Position numbers and translations under genes: made by a program | The notes under the pieces: generated by a model | The model's input: the letters and a program-made list of their open reading frames with translations, nothing else | Databases searched by the model: none | What the model was told of the DNA's origin: nothing | Part shown: positions 1,284-40,178 of the stretch, one piece after another | Numbering within the stretch: the first letter of the stretch is position 1 | Layout of the letters: each line of letters opens with the position of its first letter | Origin: a virus | Taxonomy: Duplodnaviria > Caudoviricetes | DNA: 61,910 bases | Direction: 5' to 3' (one strand) | Virus record (IMG/VR): IMGVR_UViG_3300000234_000005 | Location: 1 to 61,910 of that record

Positions 1284-3836
1284 TTACTTAATTACATTTT
1301 GTGGTTTAACTTTCAGCAATCTCTCTTTAGCTATGGCATCAAACGCACTTTTATCTAATGAGGACTTATGCTTCAGTTCTTCGATTTCAAGCTTTCTTGC
1401 GTGCTCTTTATCCTTCCCCATATTCCCCATAGCTAACTTATCTAATGAAGCCATATGCTTCAATTCCTCTGCTCGCACTTTGCTACTCTCTTCTTCACCA
1501 TTCTCAATCCTTAAGAACGCTAAGTCATCCAAGTCCGTCTTACTATGAATACTTCTAGCAGTAGCTTCATCCTTAGCTGCCTTAGCCAATTTAACTTGCT
1601 TATCAATCTCATTCTCCGCAGCAATACTTTCATTGCGAGCAGTCTCACTTTGTAGTTTAGCATTTTCCAATTGCAATCTCTGAATTTCAAGTTGCTTTAA
1701 TTGCTCTTGTACTGGATCAGGTTCTGGCTTAAAGTCCCTAATCTTCTTAGCTTGCTCAGGCATCCGTGACAAATCTAATATCTGAGCCATCAACTCATTA
1801 GTTATTCCAGGGTCAACCGAATTACCAATAGTCTGTAGCAAGAAACTCAATTCTTGCGCCTTAGCTGATTGATCTTCTAGTGTGGCAATAGTCAAATCAA
1901 TATCTATTCTACCCTCCAAGTCATCTTTACGTACAGGTACAAATTCGTCATTAGTTACTCTAACAATTTCTTCTTCTTCCAAGAATTCGGAATTATACGA
2001 CATCCATTTACGCAATAACGGCTTAACCATGTTCTCAGCTATATTACGTACTATGTTCATATTGCGTACCGAAGTAGCATCTTGTACGCCTCTAGCTGCC
2101 GTGGCGGTATTATGAGTAAGGATAAATCTATCTGTTACTGCATACAGTCTATCATCACTATCCACAGTTAGACAGCGCATGAGTACCTTGTCTACTTTTT
2201 CCATAGCAGTTATTTTTACAGTCCTGCATCTTGGCGTCATACTACTTGTAACTTTTTCACCTGTGAGGATTTCTTGTATTTTCGGTATTGTTACTGTACG
2301 ACCTGCTTGTAGATGCTCGTATACAGTATCAGCATCTACTGTGTGCCATTTTCTCAATGAGTGTTTAGTACCTGCTACCTTAATTGTCCATAAGTGCTCA
2401 CCGCCAGATTTTACAAAACCACCATTATTGAAATACATATCATAAGCTTGCTTTGGGTACTGTATTTCATGGGCTTTTGTTACACTAGTAGATTTACCAT
2501 TTGAACCAATAAGCTCATCACCATCTTGAATGTCTCTTAGTTTTTTGAATGAGCCATCAATCATTGGTATATCAGTTTCAATGTCTAACATCGCGCCGAG
2601 GCTGCTACCTGTAATACCACCACTGAAGCTTTTAACCCCAGTTAAACTTTCCATTTCATTATTCATCAATCCAATAAGATCAAATGCAGAATTTGGAATT
2701 ACATTATAACCACCTTGCCAGAAATCTGCTGGCCCACCATTAAACTCGAAGTTTTTACCTTGTAACCACTTCTTCCTATTAATCGGATCTAGCGCACCTT
2801 TACGTACTCCAATTTGACCATTATTACTCTGTGCCATATTATCAATAACACCACGAATAACAGCAGTCTTAATCTTCTGATTATCACCAATTAGTTCAGC
2901 ATTAGCCTCACCATACATCTGAAATGGGATTGCATTAAACGGTACAATAATGAATGGTGGTTTGCCATCCGGATAAGGATTACCTTCTAATCTAATGATT
3001 GTATCACCTACCCATACGCATACAACTGGTTCAGTTACACCATCTTCATCTACGTCATAGTTACCCCAATACTCATACACAACTAACTTTTTTCTGGCTT
3101 CATCTTCAAATTGAAACCTTGTTGGGTCTTGTGGATAGTATGAAGGATCATTGAAATTTGATCCTAGTGACTTATTAACTCTATCTAAGTTCTTATATCT
3201 ACCATCTTTCTTTAGTGTACTAATATCACTCTCATATCTATAAATAACAAACTGACAAGCATCAATATTATCTTGACAAGTAGGGTCTATGAATATGTCT
3301 TCATTTCTACACACCTTAGCAGTAGGTTGGTTTTTATGAACTATTGTATGCTTAGCTTTTTTAGTACCAATGTATTCTTCACCATACTCATTACGCAATA
3401 CTACTTCAGCATCTACTTCAACTTCTTCGTCTTCATAATCCCAACCAGTCTGAATAACTACAGTACCTTCACGCTCTAATACTTTAGTTGCTTTGGACAT
3501 GAAATTAAATCTATCAAACTTTCTACAGAATTGAGTATTTAACAATAATTCATTTTGTTTAGCTGCAGGAGTATCTTCATAGGTAATAGGAAAGCACTTT
3601 ACAATATCATTACTGCTTACGAACGGATCAATAATCTTAGAATGCTGCCATTCCAGTTGCTTCTTAATATCCTTAGATACAATAGCTGATTTGCCTTCTA
3701 CTTCATTACCATAAGGAAGCCCTTCGGTAGCATTTACCCAAATTTTTCTTTTAGCATCCCATTGCAATTTCATATACTCAGAAGATTTTAAATCTGCTTT
3801 AAAACTTCTTAGTAATTTAGCTTTATCAACAGCCAT
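1284..3836 (-). CDS. N4-like portal protein containing a mini-intein
   Basis: Portal-like motifs (DIFIDPTC, VVYEYWG, NPYPDGKPPF, ESLTGVKSFSGG, EEEIVRVTN) and a coiled-coil C-terminus; 850 aa precursor, about 689 aa after intein removal. Confidence 0.9.
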   Translation of the reverse strand: MAVDKAKLLRSFKADLKSSEYMKLQWDAKRKIWVNATEGLPYGNEVEGKSAIVSKDIKKQLEWQHSKIIDPFVSSNDIVKCFPITYEDTPAAKQNELLLNTQFCRKFDRFNFMSKATKVLEREGTVVIQTGWDYEDEEVEVDAEVVLRNEYGEEYIGTKKAKHTIVHKNQPTAKVCRNEDIFIDPTCQDNIDACQFVIYRYESDISTLKKDGRYKNLDRVNKSLGSNFNDPSYYPQDPTRFQFEDEARKKLVVYEYWGNYDVDEDGVTEPVVCVWVGDTIIRLEGNPYPDGKPPFIIVPFNAIPFQMYGEANAELIGDNQKIKTAVIRGVIDNMAQSNNGQIGVRKGALDPINRKKWLQGKNFEFNGGPADFWQGGYNVIPNSAFDLIGLMNNEMESLTGVKSFSGGITGSSLGAMLDIETDIPMIDGSFKKLRDIQDGDELIGSNGKSTSVTKAHEIQYPKQAYDMYFNNGGFVKSGGEHLWTIKVAGTKHSLRKWHTVDADTVYEHLQAGRTVTIPKIQEILTGEKVTSSMTPRCRTVKITAMEKVDKVLMRCLTVDSDDRLYAVTDRFILTHNTATAARGVQDATSVRNMNIVRNIAENMVKPLLRKWMSYNSEFLEEEEIVRVTNDEFVPVRKDDLEGRIDIDLTIATLEDQSAKAQELSFLLQTIGNSVDPGITNELMAQILDLSRMPEQAKKIRDFKPEPDPVQEQLKQLEIQRLQLENAKLQSETARNESIAAENEIDKQVKLAKAAKDEATARSIHSKTDLDDLAFLRIENGEEESSKVRAEELKHMASLDKLAMGNMGKDKEHARKLEIEELKHKSSLDKSAFDAIAKERLLKVKPQNVIK
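2109..2591 (-). mobile_element. Class 3 mini-intein in portal (161 aa, Met at position 1)
   Basis: GSSLGA|MLDIETDIPMIDG...GEHLW...MRCLTVDSDDRLY...ILTHN|TATAARG; W/C/T triad of class 3 inteins; no endonuclease domain. Confidence 0.85.
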
Positions 3837-3846
3837 TTAGTTATCC

Positions 3847-4206
3847 TTATTTTAAGTTTTCAAGTTTATAAATAGTTCTGTAATACACACCTAACAACAC
3901 ATCAGCTAGTGCTTGTAGTACATTATCTTCTTTATTACATAACTTGAATCTATTATCTTCAATCCACTTAGCGTGCATTTTCAGTGTTTCTAGCGACGTT
4001 GATTTAGCATCATTAGTCATTCTAGTAATTTCTTTCAACGGGCCATGCTTACCCTGATATACTTCTGCTAATTCATCAACAGCTTCCAGCACATCATCGT
4101 AGAAAGATTGAAGAATCATATGTTCTTCATAACTTTTACTGCGCAAATGAAATATATGAGCGTAGTCTCTACTTAAAAATACAAGTGCAATTAATTTTTC
4201 CATCAC
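3847..4206 (-). CDS. Ferritin/Dps-like four-helix protein
   Basis: AHIFHL..KSYEEH..L..FYD......DELAE.YQG..G and terminal YKLENLK pattern. Confidence 0.65.
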   Translation of the reverse strand: MMEKLIALVFLSRDYAHIFHLRSKSYEEHMILQSFYDDVLEAVDELAEVYQGKHGPLKEITRMTNDAKSTSLETLKMHAKWIEDNRFKLCNKEDNVLQALADVLLGVYYRTIYKLENLK

Positions 4207-4255: not shown

Positions 4256-4510
4256 TCAATTTTCTTTAACCCATTGTATTAATTTATCTAATTGACTTCT
4301 GGTGTCTTTCCAGATAACCCCATTCTCATTTGCATTATACAGCAAATCTTGTTCATTACCACCAGCAAACGGCACTGGCTCTTTAGCAGGTTGCAATAAC
4401 TCCGCAGGTGGATAACTTTTACTCTGAGGAGTTACTAAGGGAACTGTTGTAGATGCGCACCCAGTCAGTACTAAACTGGTGGACAGCAGGATTACTTTTA
4501 GCAAATTCAT
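4256..4510 (-). CDS. o-spanin (Rz1-like lipoprotein)
   Basis: Start re-assigned to MNLLKVILLSTSLVLTGC (lipobox LTGC, AAGGT RBS); Pro-rich; overlaps the i-spanin in another frame. Confidence 0.8.
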   Translation of the reverse strand: MNLLKVILLSTSLVLTGCASTTVPLVTPQSKSYPPAELLQPAKEPVPFAGGNEQDLLYNANENGVIWKDTRSQLDKLIQWVKEN

Positions 4511-4760
4511 CAATTTTACCTTTATTCTTAACCTTAATACTTTGATTTTTATTTTTAGCATCAATCAATTCTTGGGATAGCTTGAGACTTTTTTCTCTTT
4601 CAGCAATTAACTGCAAATTAGTTTCATTAACTAATGCTGTCTTCTCTTCCGCATAAGCAGCTTGCATCTTAGCGATTTTATTATCATATCGCCAATCTTG
4701 TACTATCCAAGTCCCTGCAACTAATACCAAAGCTAAAGCACCAATCACATAATTATTCAT
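4419..4760 (-). CDS. i-spanin (Rz-like)
   Basis: Start re-assigned to MNNYVIGALALVLVAGTWIVQDWRY; N-terminal TM helix plus coiled coil; directly follows the endolysin. Confidence 0.8.
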   Translation of the reverse strand: MNNYVIGALALVLVAGTWIVQDWRYDNKIAKMQAAYAEEKTALVNETNLQLIAEREKSLKLSQELIDAKNKNQSIKVKNKGKIDEFAKSNPAVHQFSTDWVRIYNSSLSNSSE

Positions 4761-28814: not shown

Positions 28815-28917
28815 TAGAAAATTAACAGCAATTATTAATCGGTCATGGGTTCGAATCCCATTAGTAATTTATTACTATAGCTCAGTTGGTAGAGCACTTA
28901 GTTAACAATATTTTCTG
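28815..28917 (+). ncRNA. ACAGCAA-motif RNA 3: circularly permuted tRNA mimic (YrlA-like Y RNA)
   Basis: Closing stem TAGAAAAT/ATTTTCTG, motif TAACAGCAA, then T arm (28845-28861), loop-closed acceptor stem (28862-28877) and D arm (28880-28895). Confidence 0.8.
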
Positions 28918-28930
28918 TAGGACAATCACT

Positions 28931-30340
28931 ATGAACACTTTCGTATCCGCCATTGGCAAACCTGAATCTGGCAAAACCACCACAACTAATGATGCAATCA
29001 CTCGCAAAAGCTCCATGAGCCATCTTGTAGACTTCTTCTACTCAATGGGCGCATCTCGTAACAAAACCCCTCTCGAACGCTTTCAGGCGTTTCTACCAGC
29101 ATATCAATCCGAACCTAATCTAACTCTTCGCACACTTCTATACTTGCGCGACGTACGGGGCGGTATGGGTGAGCGTAATTATTTCCGTGAACTCCTAATC
29201 GAACTAACTCGACTTAATCAGGAAGACGCTCTAAAACTAATCCCACTAATTAAAGAAGTTGGTCGTGCTGATGATCTATTTTCATTTGTAGGAACACCCC
29301 TCGAACTTGAAGCTCTTACTGAATTTGTTACTCAACTTAAAGCTGGTAACAAGCTATTCTTCAAATGGACTCCACGCGAAAATTCATCTAAGCGCCAAAT
29401 TGCCAGCAAACTCCGCAAACAACTTGGCATGACACCTAAGCAATATCGCAAATTCTTAGTTGAGAACACCACAGTAGTTGAAACTCCTATGTGTGCTCGT
29501 AAATGGTCTGATATTGTATATTCTCATGTCCCAAGCCAAGCTGCTCGTATTTACTCGAAAGCATTCCTTAATCGTGATGCAGAACGCTATCAGTCATACT
29601 TAAAGGATGTAACTAATGGCAAATCAACTATTAATGCTTCAGCTATCTACCCTTATGAAGTAATCAAAGGAGCTAACACAGCCGATGCTACTGAGCAAAC
29701 TAGAATTGTAACCCAGTGGAATGCACTACCTAATTATCTACCAGAAATTAACGTATTGCCTATGATTGATACTTCCGGCTCGATGGATTGTCCTGCAGGC
29801 AAGACTTCCGTAACTTGTCTCGAAGTTGCCATATCCCTAGGACTTTATGTTGCTAGTAAGTCTAAAGGAGCATTCAAAGATGTTTACATGGAATTTTCTA
29901 ATGAATCAACTCTTCACAAAGTTGAAGGAGACATCATTACTAAAATCAAATCACTTAAAAGTATTATTGCCAATACTGACCTAATTGCCGCAATCATGAG
30001 TATCCTTAGTTTCGGTATCAAGAATAAAGTACCTAATGAGGAAATGCCCAAAATATTGTTAATTTTCAGTGACATGCAATTTGATGCTCACTCATTCAGG
30101 TACACAACTAATAAAGAAATCGGACTAATGTACAAAAAGGCTGGATATTCTATCCCATCTATTGTATATTGGAATCTTAACGATCGCTCAAATGTACCCG
30201 TCAAACAGGACAAGAAGGATGTAGCGTTAGTTTCAGGATTTAGTCCAGCCTTAATGAAGACTGTTCTCGAATCTATTGATGATCTAACACCTGAGGCAAC
30301 TATGTTCAGGGCAATCATGAACCCTCGTTATCAAGTTTAA
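28931..30340 (+). CDS. Ro60/TROVE-related protein with C-terminal vWA domain (DUF2828-type), 469 aa
   Basis: Start re-assigned to ATG 28931 (AGGA RBS); LRDVRGGMGER, GRADDL, KWTPRE, YSHVPS, IYPYE, MIDAS motif DTSGSM, SDMQFD, WNL, VSGFSP. Confidence 0.85.
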   Translation: MNTFVSAIGKPESGKTTTTNDAITRKSSMSHLVDFFYSMGASRNKTPLERFQAFLPAYQSEPNLTLRTLLYLRDVRGGMGERNYFRELLIELTRLNQEDALKLIPLIKEVGRADDLFSFVGTPLELEALTEFVTQLKAGNKLFFKWTPRENSSKRQIASKLRKQLGMTPKQYRKFLVENTTVVETPMCARKWSDIVYSHVPSQAARIYSKAFLNRDAERYQSYLKDVTNGKSTINASAIYPYEVIKGANTADATEQTRIVTQWNALPNYLPEINVLPMIDTSGSMDCPAGKTSVTCLEVAISLGLYVASKSKGAFKDVYMEFSNESTLHKVEGDIITKIKSLKSIIANTDLIAAIMSILSFGIKNKVPNEEMPKILLIFSDMQFDAHSFRYTTNKEIGLMYKKAGYSIPSIVYWNLNDRSNVPVKQDKKDVALVSGFSPALMKTVLESIDDLTPEATMFRAIMNPRYQV

Positions 30341-30347
30341 CCCGCAT

Positions 30348-30428
30348 TAGGATAGCTACAGCAACCCATTAACAAAGGTGTGAGTTTCGACAGGTCTCAC
30401 CATAAACAAAAAGTAGGAAGCTATCCTG
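30348..30428 (+). ncRNA. ACAGCAA-motif RNA 4 (downstream of the Ro60-like gene)
   Basis: Closing stem TAGGATAGC/GCTATCCTG, motif TACAGCAA, inner hairpin GTGAG/CTCAC with a TTCGA-containing loop. Confidence 0.65.
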
Positions 30429-30476
30429 TTTACGTTGGTTAAACTATCTGTAAATTCAGATACCAGTTTTATATTT

Positions 30477-30511
30477 GCGGATGTGGCGAAATCGGTATAC
30501 GCAAGAGACTT
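30477..30511 (+). pseudogene. 5' half of a tRNA-Leu interrupted in the anticodon loop
   Basis: GCGGATGTGGCGAAATCGGTATACGCAAGAGACTT then unrelated sequence; no 3' half found nearby. Confidence 0.65.
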
Positions 30512-30565
30512 CATCTTTTACATGAAACTAGTAATTATATAATTTATTTACAGGAGTATATATTT

Positions 30566-30730
30566 ATGAGAGAACTAACATGTAAGAATTGTGGTAATCC
30601 AAGAGAAGTTGGCAGAAGACTGTGCGCTAAATGTAATAGTCAGAGAGTGAACTCTTACCCTAGATATAAATGGACTAACTTATCTTTTTCTTTATTTCTT
30701 GTATTTATTTTTTCTTCAATATTTTCTTGA
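30566..30730 (+). pseudogene. Truncated zinc-finger (endonuclease N-terminus-like) ORF
   Basis: AGGAG RBS; MRELTCKNCG...LCAKCN, then a T-rich tail that looks like a junction with an oppositely oriented gene fragment. Confidence 0.4.
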
Positions 30731-31815: not shown

Positions 31816-31866
31816 TTATTGACAAATAATTTTTTTAGCTGCACAATGTACATATAAACGTTTTAC

Positions 31867-31945
31867 CTGTGTGTACGTCAATTGGGAGACTACCCCCTTC
31901 TTTGGAAGCGGGAAGCTGCTGGTTCAAGTCCAGTCGCACAGACCA
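31867..31945 (+). tRNA. tRNA-Pro(UGG), irregular or possibly degenerate
   Basis: Acceptor CTGTGTG/CGCACAG-A-CCA, loop TT-TGG-AA, T arm intact; extra Cs and a mismatch in the anticodon stem. Confidence 0.7.
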
Positions 31946-31950
31946 ATTTT

Positions 31951-32027
31951 GCGGATATAGCCCAATAGGCAGAGGCATGAGACTTAAAATCTCACAAGTG
32001 TGGGTTCGAATCCCACTATCCGTACCA
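31951..32027 (+). tRNA. tRNA-Leu(UAA) with short variable loop
   Basis: TGAGA-CTTAAAA-TCTCA, GTGGG-TTCGAAT-CCCAC, ACCA end. Confidence 0.9.
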
Positions 32028-34838: not shown

Positions 34839-35927
34839 ATGAACATATCCGAACTATCAGAAGCTATTGCCCGTGACGAAATTCGTGTTAAAACCGAAAT
34901 CGTCGACGGTCAAGAATTCCGTATTGTCTGCTATATGATCGCTTCTCCCGACCTTTGGGACGTTCCAAATGCACTTGAGTGTCGTGGTATCACTTTTGAC
35001 TCTGAAGGCAACTGCGTCTGTCGTACGATGGAGAAATTCTTTAACATCAACGAAAATAAACATAGCCAACTAAGTGATCTTGATTTCAATCATGCTTTAG
35101 CATTTGACAAACTTGATGGTTCTATGATTTCCATCGTGCGAGTAAATAACAAACTCTATTGCAAAACTAAGAAATCATTCTATTCTTCAGTAGCACTATC
35201 AGCCCAAAAATATTTTGATACCCAACCTAATCTTCAAGCACTATCCAATTATATGATTGATAGGGGTTGGACTCCAACATTTGAATATGAGTCACCAGAA
35301 ACTCAAATTGTTATTCAGCAAACTGAACAAAAAATGAGTTTACTATTAGCTAGAAATATTGTTTCAGGTACATACCTGCCAAATGATGACTTAGTTATTT
35401 TAGCTAATTGGCAGCATACTCCAATTCCTGGATGGTCAAACGTAACTAACATCCTCAATCTAATTGCATTAGCTAAGGAAGCAGTTGGTGTTGAAGGTTG
35501 GGTCATACAGTTACAATCTGGAGTTCGTGTCAAACTCAAGACTGATTGGTATCTCAAACTTCATCGTTTAACGGATTATACTGAACGCAGTATTTTCGAT
35601 TTAATTATTGCCGAAGAAATTGATGATCTCATGCCTTTACTCGAAACTCGTGAAGGTGCAGTAGATAAAATAAACTCAATTTCACATCGTATCGCATATC
35701 TAATGAAACAAGCTGCAATTGATACTGCGCACCTAATCCAACTTTGGCATAGAGATAATTTATCTTTACCAGATATTGGTAAATGCTATTCACAGCACTC
35801 AGCATTTTCGTTAGCTATTATGGTATACAAAAATAGAGAACCTGATTTCAAAACTTTCATAATTAAAAACTATCGTAACCAATTCACCACCACTCCTTTA
35901 TTTTGGGGATTTGAAGTTGAAGCATGA
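34839..35927 (+). CDS. rnl1: RNA ligase 1 (T4 Rnl1/gp63 family)
   Basis: ECRG, KFFN, motif I KLDGS, TPTFE, EGWV, KLKT.WY...H. Confidence 0.9.
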   Translation: MNISELSEAIARDEIRVKTEIVDGQEFRIVCYMIASPDLWDVPNALECRGITFDSEGNCVCRTMEKFFNINENKHSQLSDLDFNHALAFDKLDGSMISIVRVNNKLYCKTKKSFYSSVALSAQKYFDTQPNLQALSNYMIDRGWTPTFEYESPETQIVIQQTEQKMSLLLARNIVSGTYLPNDDLVILANWQHTPIPGWSNVTNILNLIALAKEAVGVEGWVIQLQSGVRVKLKTDWYLKLHRLTDYTERSIFDLIIAEEIDDLMPLLETREGAVDKINSISHRIAYLMKQAAIDTAHLIQLWHRDNLSLPDIGKCYSQHSAFSLAIMVYKNREPDFKTFIIKNYRNQFTTTPLFWGFEVEA

Positions 35928-36561
35928 GGAACAACTAATGAATAACTGGCTTGACACCTCTTGGAGTAGTACCAAATTTGCTTATTGGTTACGTAATGTA
36001 CCATTTAACCATCCTGACCCAAAAGTGTACGTAGAAGCCAATAACAATTCAATGCTGCGCTACCCTTTTCGTTATTGGCTTAGTACTATTGCAATTGATA
36101 CGTTGCAAGATATTTTATCTATGCCAATTGATTTTTTCAATAACATTAAGTATTATATCAATAACCGATGGATCACTAAAACACATACTTTATCATCACC
36201 ACAGCTTAAAGTCGGTCAATGGCACGAATTAGATGATCGTATTCTTTACACTGTCATGGATTCTTTTGTAGAATTTTGTCTTAATGAATTATTGTATAGT
36301 ACGGACACTAGTTATAAAACTAAAGAAGAAAAGTTACTTGAATTTTTCAATACCACTAGATTACAATCAAATTCAGGTGATAAATACGCAGAAGTTATTC
36401 AAGAATTTGAAACAATTTACTCTTGGTGGACTGCTATTCGACCACTTCGAGAATACATTTACATAAATTCTTCTTACTACGAAACTATTGAACAGTATAA
36501 TAAAGAAGACGATGAAATGTTACTTCGCCTTATCAAAATTCGTTCAAACTTATGGAGTTAA
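35911..36561 (+). CDS. Hypothetical phage protein
   Basis: GQW.E.D.RIL...Y.WW...RP...D.EML.RLIKIR..LW pattern. Confidence 0.7.
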   Translation: MKLKHEEQLMNNWLDTSWSSTKFAYWLRNVPFNHPDPKVYVEANNNSMLRYPFRYWLSTIAIDTLQDILSMPIDFFNNIKYYINNRWITKTHTLSSPQLKVGQWHELDDRILYTVMDSFVEFCLNELLYSTDTSYKTKEEKLLEFFNTTRLQSNSGDKYAEVIQEFETIYSWWTAIRPLREYIYINSSYYETIEQYNKEDDEMLLRLIKIRSNLWS

Positions 36562-36562
36562 A

Positions 36563-37504
36563 ATGCAAGCTTTAGTAGCTATTGGAATCAGTGCATCTGG
36601 TAAATCTTATTATGCCCAATTTATTTCTGATTACCATGAAATCAATCGTGATAACATCCGTAAAGACATTCTTAAATCTAAAGGTATTACCTTTAGTTGG
36701 TCAGCATGGAATTGGAAATGGGAAAAAGAAGTAACTACCATTCAACATCAGTTAATTGAAGAATGTGCCAAAAAAAATATCCCCATCTATATTTCTGATA
36801 CCAATCTTAATCCAGAACGTCTTCATGAACTATACAAATATCTTACCAAACTTGATTTTAACGTCAAGTTTAAGATTTTTGAATCTGACTTAGCCACAGC
36901 CATTGAACGTGATAACGCTAGAATTAATGGTGTTGGAATCTACGTTATTGAACAACAACGAGTTAAATACCAGCAACTGATGGAACGACTTTCCAATGAA
37001 AATTGGTTTAAGGCTAATTTAATTACCCCTGCTCCTGTACTTCTGCAACAACACAAACATGAACACCACAAAATCAACACCTTATTAGTTGATATTGATG
37101 GTACTATTGCTCATATGAACAATCGAAGCCCATTTGATTGGTCTAAGGTTGGTGAAGATACCCCTGACGTTCTTTTGTGTAACTTTCTTAACTATTACCT
37201 ATCTGATAGCCATAATCATATCATTTTCTTAAGTGGCCGTGATCGTATTTGTGAAACAGATACTCGTGATTGGATTAGTAAATATATTCCACATACTTCT
37301 TTCAATCAAAATTGTAAACTATTTATGCGAGCTAATAATGATACTCGCAAAGATTACATTATCAAGCATGAACTCTTTTTTGAACATGTTGATTCTAACT
37401 ACAATGTAATTGCAGTATTTGACGACAGGCCCCAATGCTGCAGGTTATGGAATGACATCGGACTAAAGCTTTGGAGTACTGGTAATCAGTTGTTAAACTG
37501 GTAA
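36563..37504 (+). CDS. pseT: Polynucleotide 5'-kinase/3'-phosphatase (T4 PseT family)
   Basis: Start re-assigned (GGAG RBS); GISASGKS, NRD.IR, SDTNL; HAD domain DIDGT, SGR, FDDR. Confidence 0.92.
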   Translation: MQALVAIGISASGKSYYAQFISDYHEINRDNIRKDILKSKGITFSWSAWNWKWEKEVTTIQHQLIEECAKKNIPIYISDTNLNPERLHELYKYLTKLDFNVKFKIFESDLATAIERDNARINGVGIYVIEQQRVKYQQLMERLSNENWFKANLITPAPVLLQQHKHEHHKINTLLVDIDGTIAHMNNRSPFDWSKVGEDTPDVLLCNFLNYYLSDSHNHIIFLSGRDRICETDTRDWISKYIPHTSFNQNCKLFMRANNDTRKDYIIKHELFFEHVDSNYNVIAVFDDRPQCCRLWNDIGLKLWSTGNQLLNW

Positions 37505-37532
37505 CTAATCCAATAAGTAAATTACAAATCTT

Positions 37533-37597
37533 CTGCATTTTATTCTCCAAACGAATAAGGTGTAGCGCTAGCAGAGCCTCCTCCACTCGTGGCTAGC
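37533..37597 (+). ncRNA. Candidate two-hairpin small RNA with a CCUCC loop
   Basis: 13-bp hairpin with G.U pairs, then a GCTAGC-closed hairpin exposing CCTCCTCCA. Confidence 0.35.
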
Positions 37598-37650
37598 AAC
37601 TATTCCTTTTAAAAATAAAATTTTAAATAATCTAAAATGAAGAATCAATA

Positions 37651-37875
37651 ATGGGCATGTATAGCACTATAACTAATAAATATTCTCCACAACCTTGCAC
37701 AAATTGCAATAAAATCAATGTCGCTGGTCAATGGTGGTACTTAGGTAACTACTTCGGGATTAGTGGTTATTTTTGCCCAAAATGCAATAATTTAGTAAGC
37801 CATAATAGCTATGGCATACCTAATTACCCTGAACAATATGAACTAATTAAAAATAAACAAAGTAAACAACCATGA
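37651..37875 (+). CDS. Small zinc-finger protein
   Basis: CxxC...CxxC motifs. Confidence 0.6.
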   Translation: MGMYSTITNKYSPQPCTNCNKINVAGQWWYLGNYFGISGYFCPKCNNLVSHNSYGIPNYPEQYELIKNKQSKQP

Positions 37876-38198
37876 AACCTTTTAATTTAGATGAAGCCTT
37901 AGCCGGTAAGCAAGTAGTAGATAAACATAATAACAAAGTAGAACAACTAAAACTTTATGATACCGGCAATGGATTCAAGTTAGTATATACAATAAAGGCA
38001 GAATTATACGCCTGCACTATTGATCTTGCTTTAACTACCTTATTCATGGCTACGGTTTTAACAAACTATTGTGTATCATTACTTAAACAAGACAATGTAT
38101 ACTTCTTAGGGTGTCCATATCTAGCTCATGAATACCCATTAGATGAAGCTTTTACTGCTGGCTTTGTTAAAGCAATTCAGTTTACCGTTGATGAATAA
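37872..38198 (+). CDS. Hypothetical protein (MKPFNL..ALAG..V family)
   Basis: Recognisable phage N-terminal motif; coupled to the upstream gene. Confidence 0.65.
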   Translation: MKPFNLDEALAGKQVVDKHNNKVEQLKLYDTGNGFKLVYTIKAELYACTIDLALTTLFMATVLTNYCVSLLKQDNVYFLGCPYLAHEYPLDEAFTAGFVKAIQFTVDE

Positions 38199-38255
38199 AA
38201 TTGAAGTAAAATCTTGTTTTAAATCTTTCTATCCACGATATTTATAGAGGCTACC

Positions 38256-39311
38256 ATGCGCAAACTTGCACGTATTGTACAAATTGATTCCATTCTCCCC
38301 CACACCAATGCAGATGCTCTTGAACTAGCAATTATTGGCGGATGGCAAGTCATTGTCAAAAAAGACCAATTTAACTCTGGTGATATGGCTATCTATTGTG
38401 AAATTGACAGCTTTATACCAACCAAGGTAGCTCCATTTCTAACTCGTGATGGCCATGAACCTAAACTATTTAAGGGTGTTCAAGGTGAACGTCTACGCAG
38501 TGTCAAATTACGCGGCGAACTTTCTCAAGGACTTCTTATCTCATTAGATAGCTTACTTCATTTTATTAATCCACATACGACAAACTTAGTGGTTGATGAT
38601 GATGATGTAACCGAACTTCTTGGAATTCAGAAGTGGGAAATTCCTGAAAATCCACAATTAACTGGACAAGCTAAAGGATCATTTCCATCATTTATTCCTA
38701 AAACTGACCAAGAACGGTGTCAAAACCTCATTAAAGAAATTCAGCAATCGTTTGAAACCGAAGAAGTATTTGAGCAAACAATTAAACTTGACGGTTCAAG
38801 TATGACCGTTTACTGTAATAATGGAGAAGTGGGTGTATGCTCACGTAACCAAGACTTGAAAATCAATGATGAAAATGCAGAAAACTCGTTCATCAAAACC
38901 TCATTTACGACAGGTATTGGTACTGCACTATTGTCACTTTATGCTCACTTAGGGCGCAATCTTGCAGTACAAGGCGAACTTATGGGGCCGGGTATCCAAG
39001 GTAATAAAGAAAACTTCACCAACCACCTATTTTTTATCTTTGATATTTTTGATATTGACACACAACGTTATTTACTACCTGAAGAACGTTATAAATGTCT
39101 CAATGACTTAGAAGTATTTGGCTACACAAGTAATCATGTTCCTACACTTGGAGCATGTAAACTAGAAACATCAAAAATTGATGAAATTTTACTAGCTGCA
39201 GAAGGTCCTTCCTTATTCGCTAATCAACGCGAAGGTATTGTATATAAAAGTACTACACGGGATTTTTCATTTAAAGCAATTTCAAATAAATGGCTGCTAA
39301 AAAATGAGTAA
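38256..39311 (+). CDS. RNA ligase, DRB0094 family
   Basis: MRKLA...NADALE...GWQV, KLRGELSQG, FP.FIPKTDQER.QN, KLDGSS, QGELMGPGIQGN, REGIV, SFKAISN. Confidence 0.9.
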   Translation: MRKLARIVQIDSILPHTNADALELAIIGGWQVIVKKDQFNSGDMAIYCEIDSFIPTKVAPFLTRDGHEPKLFKGVQGERLRSVKLRGELSQGLLISLDSLLHFINPHTTNLVVDDDDVTELLGIQKWEIPENPQLTGQAKGSFPSFIPKTDQERCQNLIKEIQQSFETEEVFEQTIKLDGSSMTVYCNNGEVGVCSRNQDLKINDENAENSFIKTSFTTGIGTALLSLYAHLGRNLAVQGELMGPGIQGNKENFTNHLFFIFDIFDIDTQRYLLPEERYKCLNDLEVFGYTSNHVPTLGACKLETSKIDEILLAAEGPSLFANQREGIVYKSTTRDFSFKAISNKWLLKNE

Positions 39312-39339
39312 CCTCTACAAAATCTATTGGTAACATACT

Positions 39340-39561
39340 ATGATTAACTCACAACTACTCCGCAACATGCCTTCTAATGACCAAATAGGAAGTCTTCTTT
39401 ACTCTTTGGCATACCGTTGCAAACAAACTACTCCCTACCTACAACGCGAACTGCACTACCTCCGTAATCAAGGCTTAGTTACACAAGACTGTCTTGGTAT
39501 GTTGTGGCGACGCACGATTTCAGCGGATCAACTCCTAGCGCATGAACATTCTATGGATTAA
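39340..39561 (+). CDS. Hypothetical protein
   Basis: 73 aa ORF in the operon. Confidence 0.5.
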   Translation: MINSQLLRNMPSNDQIGSLLYSLAYRCKQTTPYLQRELHYLRNQGLVTQDCLGMLWRRTISADQLLAHEHSMD

Positions 39562-39575
39562 TCATACATCTAACT

Positions 39576-40178
39576 ATGAAACTCCTCGGAAACCTCCCCA
39601 GTCAGACTTACCTAGCCTTTAGCGGTGGTTCTGATAGTACGGCAGTACTCAAGTTTTTACTTCGCTCTCGTGACGTTACCTTAGTTCACTACGTACATAA
39701 TTCAGATTTTGCCGAAACCGAATATAATTTTACTTTAGATATTGCATCCAAATATAACTGTAAACTAATTGTCGGCAAACAAGTATCTCAACGTCTACCT
39801 AAACAATCCCTAGAAGAATACTGGCGAATCGGACGTAACGCTTTTTTACACAGTATCAATAACTCGGTTATGACTGCTCACAATCTAAATGACAATGCTG
39901 AATCTTGGCTGATGGGGGCAATTACAGGAGTGCCTAAACTCATTCCTTATTGTAATAATAACATCATCCGCCCCTTCATGCTATTTACGAAGGAGGAGCT
40001 TGCTAAGCACTTAAATGGACAAACCTATCTAACTGATCCATCTAATACTGATAACTCTTTAACGAGGGCCTACGTTCGAAATGTATTACTTCCAAACGTA
40101 TTGCAAATCAACCCAGGATTCCTTACAATGACTAAACGAATGGTTACCAAAAAGTACAACAATGATTATTCCAAATAA
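39576..40178 (+). CDS. tilS: tRNA(Ile)-lysidine synthetase-like PP-loop ATPase (catalytic domain only)
   Basis: AFSGGSDS, TAHNLND.AE, IIRPF, DPSN....TR..VR. Confidence 0.8.
   Translation: MKLLGNLPSQTYLAFSGGSDSTAVLKFLLRSRDVTLVHYVHNSDFAETEYNFTLDIASKYNCKLIVGKQVSQRLPKQSLEEYWRIGRNAFLHSINNSVMTAHNLNDNAESWLMGAITGVPKLIPYCNNNIIRPFMLFTKEELAKHLNGQTYLTDPSNTDNSLTRAYVRNVLLPNVLQINPGFLTMTKRMVTKKYNNDYSK

Follow-up and report, generated by a model that had tools for sequence, protein, structure and literature searches.

A phage-encoded tRNA-like RNA of probable YrlA type upstream of a Ro60-fold protein gene

What is encoded in the hundred or so nucleotides that precede the gene for a Ro60-like protein in the tailed-virus record IMGVR_UViG_3300000234_000005 (Duplodnaviria; Caudoviricetes)? 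The window analyzed here is this entire record of 61,910 bases (b), which has an estimated completeness of 71%. A preliminary description, made from the sequence, had taken positions 28815-28917 for a circularly permuted tRNA mimic, opened at the anticodon and closed at the acceptor end, in which the T arm, acceptor stem and D arm follow one another in the order described for YrlA Y RNAs. Comparative analysis indicates that this segment probably encodes a phage Y RNA of the YrlA type, a divergent variant and the presumed partner of the Ro60-fold protein encoded downstream; this protein is its most likely partner because the RNA is located just before the gene. RNAs of the YrlA kind have been in print since 2014 (PMC4201824), and what is new here is an ACAGCAA handle, the lack of a variable (V) arm and a partner of the DUF2828 type. 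The role of the tRNA-like domain in bacterial Y RNAs is a question that has stood since 2014, and the same domain is found here on a different handle, next to a family that Pfam lists as a domain of unknown function (DUF).

Conservation and anatomy of the RNA

The Rfam YrlA model (RF02553) aligns to the RNA over all of its positions (1-114) with a score of 43.2 bits and E-values of 3.2e-8 on 701 b and 6.7e-10 on the whole record. This full-length alignment supports the proposed identity of the T-acceptor-D order with the architecture published for YrlA (PMC4201824); mismatch marks in the alignment indicate a poor fit to the inner helices of the Rfam model. For comparison within phages, we took as relatives 80 viral loci encoding proteins 40-48% identical to the downstream protein (loci are referred to by L-numbers where they must be told apart). 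Strict regular expressions for the T and D arms missed most relatives, and covariance models were used instead. Model R1 was built from an alignment, A2, of eleven units containing the T arm, the acceptor-like stem (AS) and the D arm in this order (T-AS-D units), and model R2 was built from 14 relatives with the window left out. In a search of both strands of the 61,910 b, the top match of R2 spans 28813-28921 with 56.8 bits (E ~1e-8), among five matches with E ≤ 1.

Folding of A2 with RNAalifold gives 17 base pairs in the terminal, T and D stems, of which 12 show compensatory changes. Double-sided changes occupy 46 cells of the alignment compared with 13.7 in shuffles, and pairing holds in 99.5% of the pair cells; shuffles give 75.1%, with none of 500 reaching the observed value, and slid partners give 33-45%. 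The AS is kept with unrelated sequence, having 7 bp in L072, L076, L073 and L011, 6 bp in L008 and L044, and 5 bp in L015b and phiM12; these lengths cover the rows that were parsed sensibly, leaving out L015a, L005, MiniLon, FelixO1 (misread) and seven rows of the L025 type (L025, L026, L054, L037, L053, L045 and L046), which have T stems of 4 bp. Contigs from two metagenome runs that are ~93% alike to the locus carry four changes in the 103 nt, none of which falls in a stem. The variant G28853A, found in a contig of this kind, is the sole change in the T arm and keeps the T-loop purine, and G28901A converts a G-U pair with T28835 to A-U. The sequencing runs containing the stretch comprise 10 DNA rows, with no RNA run listed.

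Table 1. Features of the RNA, its sister units and the putative partner gene in the 61,910-b window.
Feature	Position	Strand	Remarks
Sister unit 1	28695-28753	+	Same handle, other interior; R2 20.6 bits, E 0.097
Sister unit 2	28761-28808	+	Short; stem with one mismatch; R2 16.6 bits, E 0.57
Terminal stem P1, 5' strand TAGAAAAT	28815-28822	+	8 bp with 28910-28917; followed by TA
Handle motif ACAGCAA	28825-28831	+	11-nt form ATTAACAGCAA at 28821-28831; putative protein-binding site
8-nt linker TTATTAAT	28832-28839	+	Relatives have a V or anticodon-like hairpin at this spot
Variable-loop-like CGGTC	28840-28844	+	tRNA positions 44-48; G46, C48
T arm ATGGG-TTCGAAT-CCCAT	28845-28861	+	4 of 5 stem pairs with compensatory changes in relatives
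Closed acceptor-like hairpin (AS) TAGTAAT-TT-ATTACTA	28862-28877	+	7 complementary pairs, TT loop
TA	28878-28879	+	tRNA positions 8-9
D arm GCTC-AGTTGGTA-GAGC	28880-28895	+	3 of 4 D-stem pairs with compensatory changes
A26	28896	+	Directly after the D arm
3' junction CTTAGTTAACAAT	28897-28909	+	13 nt; weakly supported part
Terminal stem P1, 3' strand ATTTTCTG	28910-28917	+	Next nucleotide T, giving CTGT at 28915-28918
Shine-Dalgarno-like AGGA	28919-28922	+	1 nt separates it from the P1 end (28917)
ATG of the Ro60-like gene	28931-28933	+	13 nt beyond the terminal stem
Putative partner gene	28931-30340	+	469 aa; Ro60 fold (helical ring and vWA domain with DxSxS)
Sister unit 4	30348-30428	+	Just past the stop codon of the gene; R2 29.7 bits, E 0.0017

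The RNA is a unit of ~103 nt on the plus strand (28815-28917) and the third of four units arranged around the Ro60-like gene. All of the elements that had been listed for it, namely CGGTC, the T arm, the hairpin, TA, the D arm, the following A and ACAGCAA, lie where they had been placed (Table 1). Of the eight pairs of the terminal stem P1, the U-G, A-U and G-C pairs at its base are constant across the 11 relatives and the other five change on both sides; the handle nucleotides C, G, C and A and the CTGT end are invariant in A2. The spacing from the handle motif to the G run of the T stem is 18 nt in the window RNA, compared with 26-40 nt in 19 relatives. The acceptor stem had been described as closed by a TT loop: the seven complementary pairs are present, but a loop of two nucleotides is unable to close, so that the AS is effectively a stem of 6 bp with a 4-nt loop, as folded by RNAfold. 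The 3' junction can pair weakly with 28835-28838, as an 'anticodon stem' of four pairs, or with TAAC at 28823-28826; the best RNAfold structure pairs 28823-28826 with 28901-28904, and the centroid structure is without that pairing.

The set of tRNA-core nucleotides is complete, comprising U8, A14, G15/C48, G18-G19, G46, T54-T55-C56, a purine at position 57, A58 and G53-C61. With numbering by analogy to tRNA, these positions correspond to T28878, A28884, G28885 with C28844, G28888-G28889 and the T loop TTCGAAT, and C48 (28844) could make a Levitt pair with G15 (28885). At the level of sequence, the partners of the tertiary contacts that hold a tRNA elbow (U8-A14, R15-Y48, G18/G19 with T-loop positions 55/56, and T54-A58) are all present.

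In its native order, the segment at 28815-28917 is not called as a tRNA by ARAGORN or by the Rfam tRNA model RF00005. When the RNA is un-permuted, with the D-side half placed before the T-side half, ARAGORN finds a tRNA with a 7-bp acceptor stem, a D arm and a T arm; this call requires that introns be allowed, and its anticodon arm and label are contrived. Because of this call, the term 'circularly permuted tRNA body' is fair for the acceptor, D and T parts. The expression 'opened at the anticodon' is imprecise, since the window RNA lacks any anticodon arm and has only 8 nt between ACAGCAA and the variable loop, though several relatives have a complete hairpin there. The earlier observation that there is neither an anticodon loop nor a free CCA end is correct; lacking an anticodon arm and a free 3' end, the RNA could neither decode nor, as transcribed, be charged. 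In related units of four sequence groups (L072:2286-2407, L015:1249-1371, L011:1379-1502 and L015:1381-1503), the stretch that precedes the variable loop forms a hairpin laid out like an anticodon arm, with a 5-bp stem and a 7-nt loop of the form CU-NNN-AA (NNN being TGT, TCT, GAA and GCA), and these units therefore have the appearance of entire circularly permuted tRNAs whose break falls between positions 26 and 27. A further unit, L072:2070-2168, holds within its handle a D arm, an anticodon-like arm and a T arm, ordered as in a native tRNA, and the handle stem replaces the acceptor stem.

The handle in the window and in related phages

The motif ACAGCAA starts at 28705, 28770, 28825 and 30358, once in each of the four units of the window, and each time follows a terminal stem. 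Sister unit 4 contains a hairpin of the GAGTTTCGA type and a AAACAAAAAGTAG stretch, both of which recur in related loci. Sister unit 2 is the most variable among near relatives, with 12 changed places and six insertions in the ~93%-alike contigs. An Rfam scan of sister units 1 and 2 at E ≤ 10 returned only a chance match to a snoRNA. Our literature search found no paper that defines an ACAGCAA handle and, in the portions of the literature accessible to it, no paper on phage or bacterial Y RNAs that connects ACAGCAA with Ro60.

Handle units are concentrated upstream of the gene in the 80 related loci, at a density of 3.5/kb in the 600 nt 5' of the gene compared with 0.7/kb elsewhere on the same strand and 0.34/kb on the opposite strand. 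Their stems differ in sequence yet pair, and their interiors range from ~50 to 237 nt. Across 581,835 b from 92 sources, R1 gives 148 matches with E ≤ 0.01, all of them on the strand of the gene. Mycobacteriophage MiniLon and 24 of the 80 loci have full T-AS-D units (R1 score of at least 60 bits); nine of those 24 loci supplied ten of the eleven rows from which R1 was built and therefore match by construction.

In eleven named phages, the sequence up to 2 kb from the gene was sampled. Eight of these have clear handle units (FelixO1, MiniLon, Aeromonas LAh_8, Bacillus FADO, Campylobacter Los1, Staphylococcus S-CoN_Ph1, Listeria LP-048 and phiM12), two have doubtful ones (Ci1 and ValKK3), and Serratia BF has none within that distance. 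T-AS-D units on the handle occur in MiniLon, phiM12 and FelixO1. The Rfam YrlA model finds only MiniLon (37.7 bits) and phiM12 (35.2 bits) among the named phages, both as partial matches, and blastn of 28300-30400 against the named phages gave no match. In FelixO1 (L082), the handle units at 3713-3779, 3880-3937, 4334-4401 and 4418-4550 are unannotated and lie among annotated tRNA genes 3' of open reading frame ORF86; the last is the T-AS-D unit, and some annotated small open reading frames of the opposite strand overlap the four units. In Listeria LP-048 (L091), positions 469-1020, ~1 kb upstream of the Ro60-like gene, match the ROOL RNA with 90 bits (E 7.5e-17; cut-off 99.1 bits), and three handle units follow at 1662-1927.

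The Ro60-fold protein and known Ro60-Y RNA systems

The 469-residue protein encoded downstream of the RNA matches DUF2828 and DUF7788 in Pfam and, over its full length, the 'RNA-binding protein' family phrog_850 of PHROGs (E 3e-125). An AlphaFold2 model based on 25 sequences has a mean predicted local distance difference test score (pLDDT) of 75.6 and a predicted template modeling score (pTM) of 0.72. In a Foldseek search of the PDB with this model, ranks 1-13 are all Ro60 structures (Thermus phage phiLo, Xenopus, Deinococcus and human), with E-values from 2.4e-8 to 1.8e-5 and TM-scores of 0.35-0.60, followed by vWA domains. The MIDAS (metal ion-dependent adhesion site) residues D280-x-S282-x-S284, T349 and D381 are invariant in the 25 sequences. 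The earlier suggestion of a Ro60-like neighbor thus holds at the level of the predicted fold. By tblastn, 711 of 50,697 phage records encode the protein. Copies in mycobacteriophages are annotated 'Ro-like RNA binding protein' and have an identical Pfam make-up; the FelixO1 homologue is 37% identical to the window protein and is encoded directly upstream of tRNA genes. The DUF2828 literature found, as far as its accessible text goes, concerns plants and a tardigrade genome.

YrlA RNAs share the T-AS-D order and have been described from 254 bacteria and 22 phages, in the vicinity of Ro60 genes (PMC4201824). The window RNA resembles them in the succession of T arm, closed acceptor-like stem and D arm, in the tRNA-like core nucleotides, in the combination of a protein-binding end (putative here) with a tRNA-like end in one RNA, and in its location on the same strand within 4 kb of a Ro60-type gene, here 13 nt from the ATG. 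It differs in lacking a V arm and in having a partner with DUF2828 and DUF7788 in place of TROVE, although the 22 phages of that study may include some with DUF2828-type proteins. YrlA RNAs are modified by TruB and DusA, and in Mycobacterium smegmatis YrlA is cleaved by RNase P and acquires CCA (PMC4201824); this partly contradicts the earlier notion of an RNA of this kind as uncleavable and never charged.

The Ro60 protein of Thermus phage phiLo binds two Y-like RNAs encoded upstream, Yrl1 and Yrl2, and host PNPase (PMC12135203). The arrangement is similar, with a phage protein of Ro60 fold and Y-like RNAs just upstream of its gene, and the phiLo structures (PDB 9KOP and 9L5Y) are the best structural matches to the window protein, with 14% identity in the structural alignment. 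In contrast, the phiLo RNAs are chosen by a CGAA motif and have a stem-bulge-stem form, and the accessible text of the paper does not mention a tRNA-like domain. A second phage protein, gp130 of the felixounavirus Bas63, has a Ro60-like structure, is encoded directly upstream of tRNA genes and counters the Ppl defense (PMC11482910, a preprint); judged by that description, it is a putative homologue of the window protein. The Bas63 authors speculate that Y RNAs may be among the annotated tRNA genes (PMC11482910), and in FelixO1 the handle units lie unannotated between the tRNA genes.

A likeness outside phages concerns the layout of the handle. Dictyostelid Class I RNAs (RF01414) have an end-joining stem starting from G, an unpaired 11-nt motif with T3, C6, C9, A10 and A11, and a 3' CUGU, the C of which pairs with the 5' G (PMC7919456). 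As far as that layout is given in the accessible part of the paper, the window RNA has it as well, with G at 28817, ATTAACAGCAA at 28821-28831 and CTGT at 28915-28918. In contrast, the Class I RNAs described there are 42-65 nt long and eukaryotic and have no tRNA-like part or known link to Ro60. The best match of RF01414 in the window scores 12.2 bits (E 1.05; cut-off 41.5 bits) and lies at 28762-28807, in sister unit 2 and not in this RNA; matches of that level also occur in 8 of 14 control genomes. The likeness may be convergent, and we claim no membership of the Class I family.

Several observations weigh against a YrlA-type identity and a partnership with the downstream protein. The RF02553 score is below the Rfam gathering cut-off of 69 bits, which is why a default Rfam scan does not list the RNA. 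YrlA RNAs carry a 5' GNCGAA motif that has been described as the likely Ro60 site (PMC4201824), whereas the window RNA has no GNCGAA(N0-1)G in 28815-28844 and has ACAGCAA. The folding energy is unremarkable, with a RNAfold z-score of -1.52 and 17 of 200 shuffles folding as well. T-AS-D units are found in only 24 of the 80 loci (up to 2.5 kb per side), which indicates that the tRNA-like cargo is optional. The protein has no Pfam TROVE match, a phmmer search of PDB sequences with it gave no match at E ≤ 1, and its fold similarity is moderate by the TM-scores and the pLDDT of the model given above. Finally, gp130 expressed from a plasmid or carried in T7 is enough to act against Ppl (PMC11482910; the accessible text does not state whether RNA was cloned along with it), and hence the protein may have at least one activity that does not depend on phage RNAs.

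A YrlA-type partner RNA would fall into two modules. The handle, made up of the 8-bp stem and the single-stranded ACAGCAA common to the four units, is the likely dock for the ring protein, and the cargo would be the tRNA body, with its T arm, sealed acceptor-like stem of seven pairs and D arm, which carries all of the elbow nucleotides. The units may be transcribed together with the gene, separated by cuts in the U-rich spacers and then trimmed to the stem protected by the protein. Host tRNA enzymes may modify the T and D loops, as they do in Salmonella YrlA. The ring protein would grip the handle so that the tRNA-like end projects, and this end could stabilize or protect the RNA or recruit a host factor such as PNPase, as has been demonstrated for bacterial and Thermus-phage Ro60 particles. 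The preliminary description had proposed that the RNA could tether tRNA-recognizing enzymes, such as anticodon nucleases or modification enzymes, to the Ro60-like protein. Nearby genes for tRNAs, a polynucleotide kinase-phosphatase, two RNA ligases and a PP-loop enzyme suggest that such a particle might serve in RNA surveillance or counter-defense during infection.

A wider proposal is possible, although we regard it as doubtful: the RNA may represent one type of cargo in an undescribed, phage-wide Ro/Y branch, in which ring proteins of the DUF2828 type recognize a universal handle (a stem from G, ..U..C..CAA and a 3' CUGU, in the layout of the Class I RNAs) that displays exchangeable RNA parts. 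Such parts would include the sealed tRNA body, permuted tRNAs with anticodon-like loops, lone T arms and large folded domains, and the units with a tRNA body would recruit to the ring host enzymes that bind tRNA or defense factors directed at it, for example against Ppl. 

Independently of this proposal, carriers of the protein family include phages used in the laboratory with E. coli, Salmonella, Listeria, Staphylococcus, Campylobacter and Mycobacterium, and one homologue has a reported phenotype, the countering of Ppl. If the RNAs are its partners, a tractable phage would allow a genetic dissection of what handle, tRNA body and ring each do, and dozens of unannotated small RNA genes would be concealed in phage tRNA clusters.

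Alternative explanations and genomic surroundings

The position of the RNA directly before the gene raises the question of whether it is instead a cis-acting leader of the Ro60-like mRNA, either an operator for translational self-shutoff or a tRNA-like signal for 5' processing or stabilization. We consider this unlikely as the explanation of the RNA. The 3' end does adjoin the ribosome-binding site, as had been noted: the terminal stem ends at 28917, AGGA occupies 28919-28922 and the ATG starts at 28931, leaving 1 nt to AGGA and 13 nt to the ATG. A scan of 27700-30700 gave 11 promoter-like sites compared with 10.7 expected and 0 terminators, and thus no promoter-like or terminator-like site that separates the RNA from the gene; this result is uninformative on the transcription unit. 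Of 75 related loci, 53 have a last unit that stops ≤35 nt short of the start codon, adjoining the ribosome-binding site. However, this adjoining unit is mostly a short hairpin unit (38 of the 53, against 15 long units) and not the tRNA-like one. In addition, the T-AS-D unit lies elsewhere in other phages, 0.4-1.2 kb upstream of the gene and behind other units in L005, L008, L011, L015 and L042, and downstream of it in MiniLon and FelixO1; T-AS-D units at such distances make it unlikely that the RNA is a leader element only. The two functions can be compatible, and adjacency to the ribosome-binding site, conserved in 53 of the 75 loci, allows for the autoregulation that had been suggested for a partner RNA.

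It appears improbable that the RNA is a tRNA decoy acting without the Ro60-like protein, which would absorb host tRNA-binding enzymes or defense nucleases and would lie close to the gene merely through its origin in a tRNA cluster. The complete set of tRNA-elbow nucleotides would suit such a decoy, as would the tRNA genes that neighbor the RNA and the RNA-repair genes at 34839-39311. Against this, the handle is identical to that of units without a tRNA part and tracks the Ro60-like gene across distant phages, and the lack of an anticodon loop leaves no site for anticodon nucleases.

A chance remnant, in which the 3' half of one decayed tRNA gene precedes the 5' half of the next, is highly improbable: although adjacent tRNA genes can match the models (L089:908-1016 with 43.8 bits and L088:1581-1696 with 35.4 bits for R1, and window positions 31863-32003 with 19.8 bits for R2; all three excluded by eye for want of a handle), the 'halves' in this RNA pair with each other through a 2-nt turn without CCA, spacer or leader, no further tRNA halves lie on either flank, a stem that covaries, with ACAGCAA, encloses the whole, 24 of 80 loci and three named phages show the layout again with stems unrelated in sequence, and the ~93%-alike contigs have no pair of intact tRNA genes at the site, which the preliminary description had named as the finding that would speak for two ordinary genes.

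Further genes of the window lie on either side of the array. Upstream, an AAA ATPase gene with a tRNA immediately after it occupies 26607-27829, an arrangement also seen in Aeromonas LAh_8 (L086 1-430), and the ATPase could be a partner of the vWA domain. The region 34839-40178, 6-11 kb downstream, encodes an Rnl1-type RNA ligase, a polynucleotide kinase-phosphatase, a second RNA ligase (OB fold) and a PP-loop (TilS-like) enzyme. Two group I introns are found on the plus strand at 21855-22156 (82.3 bits) and 22699-22943 (74.8 bits).

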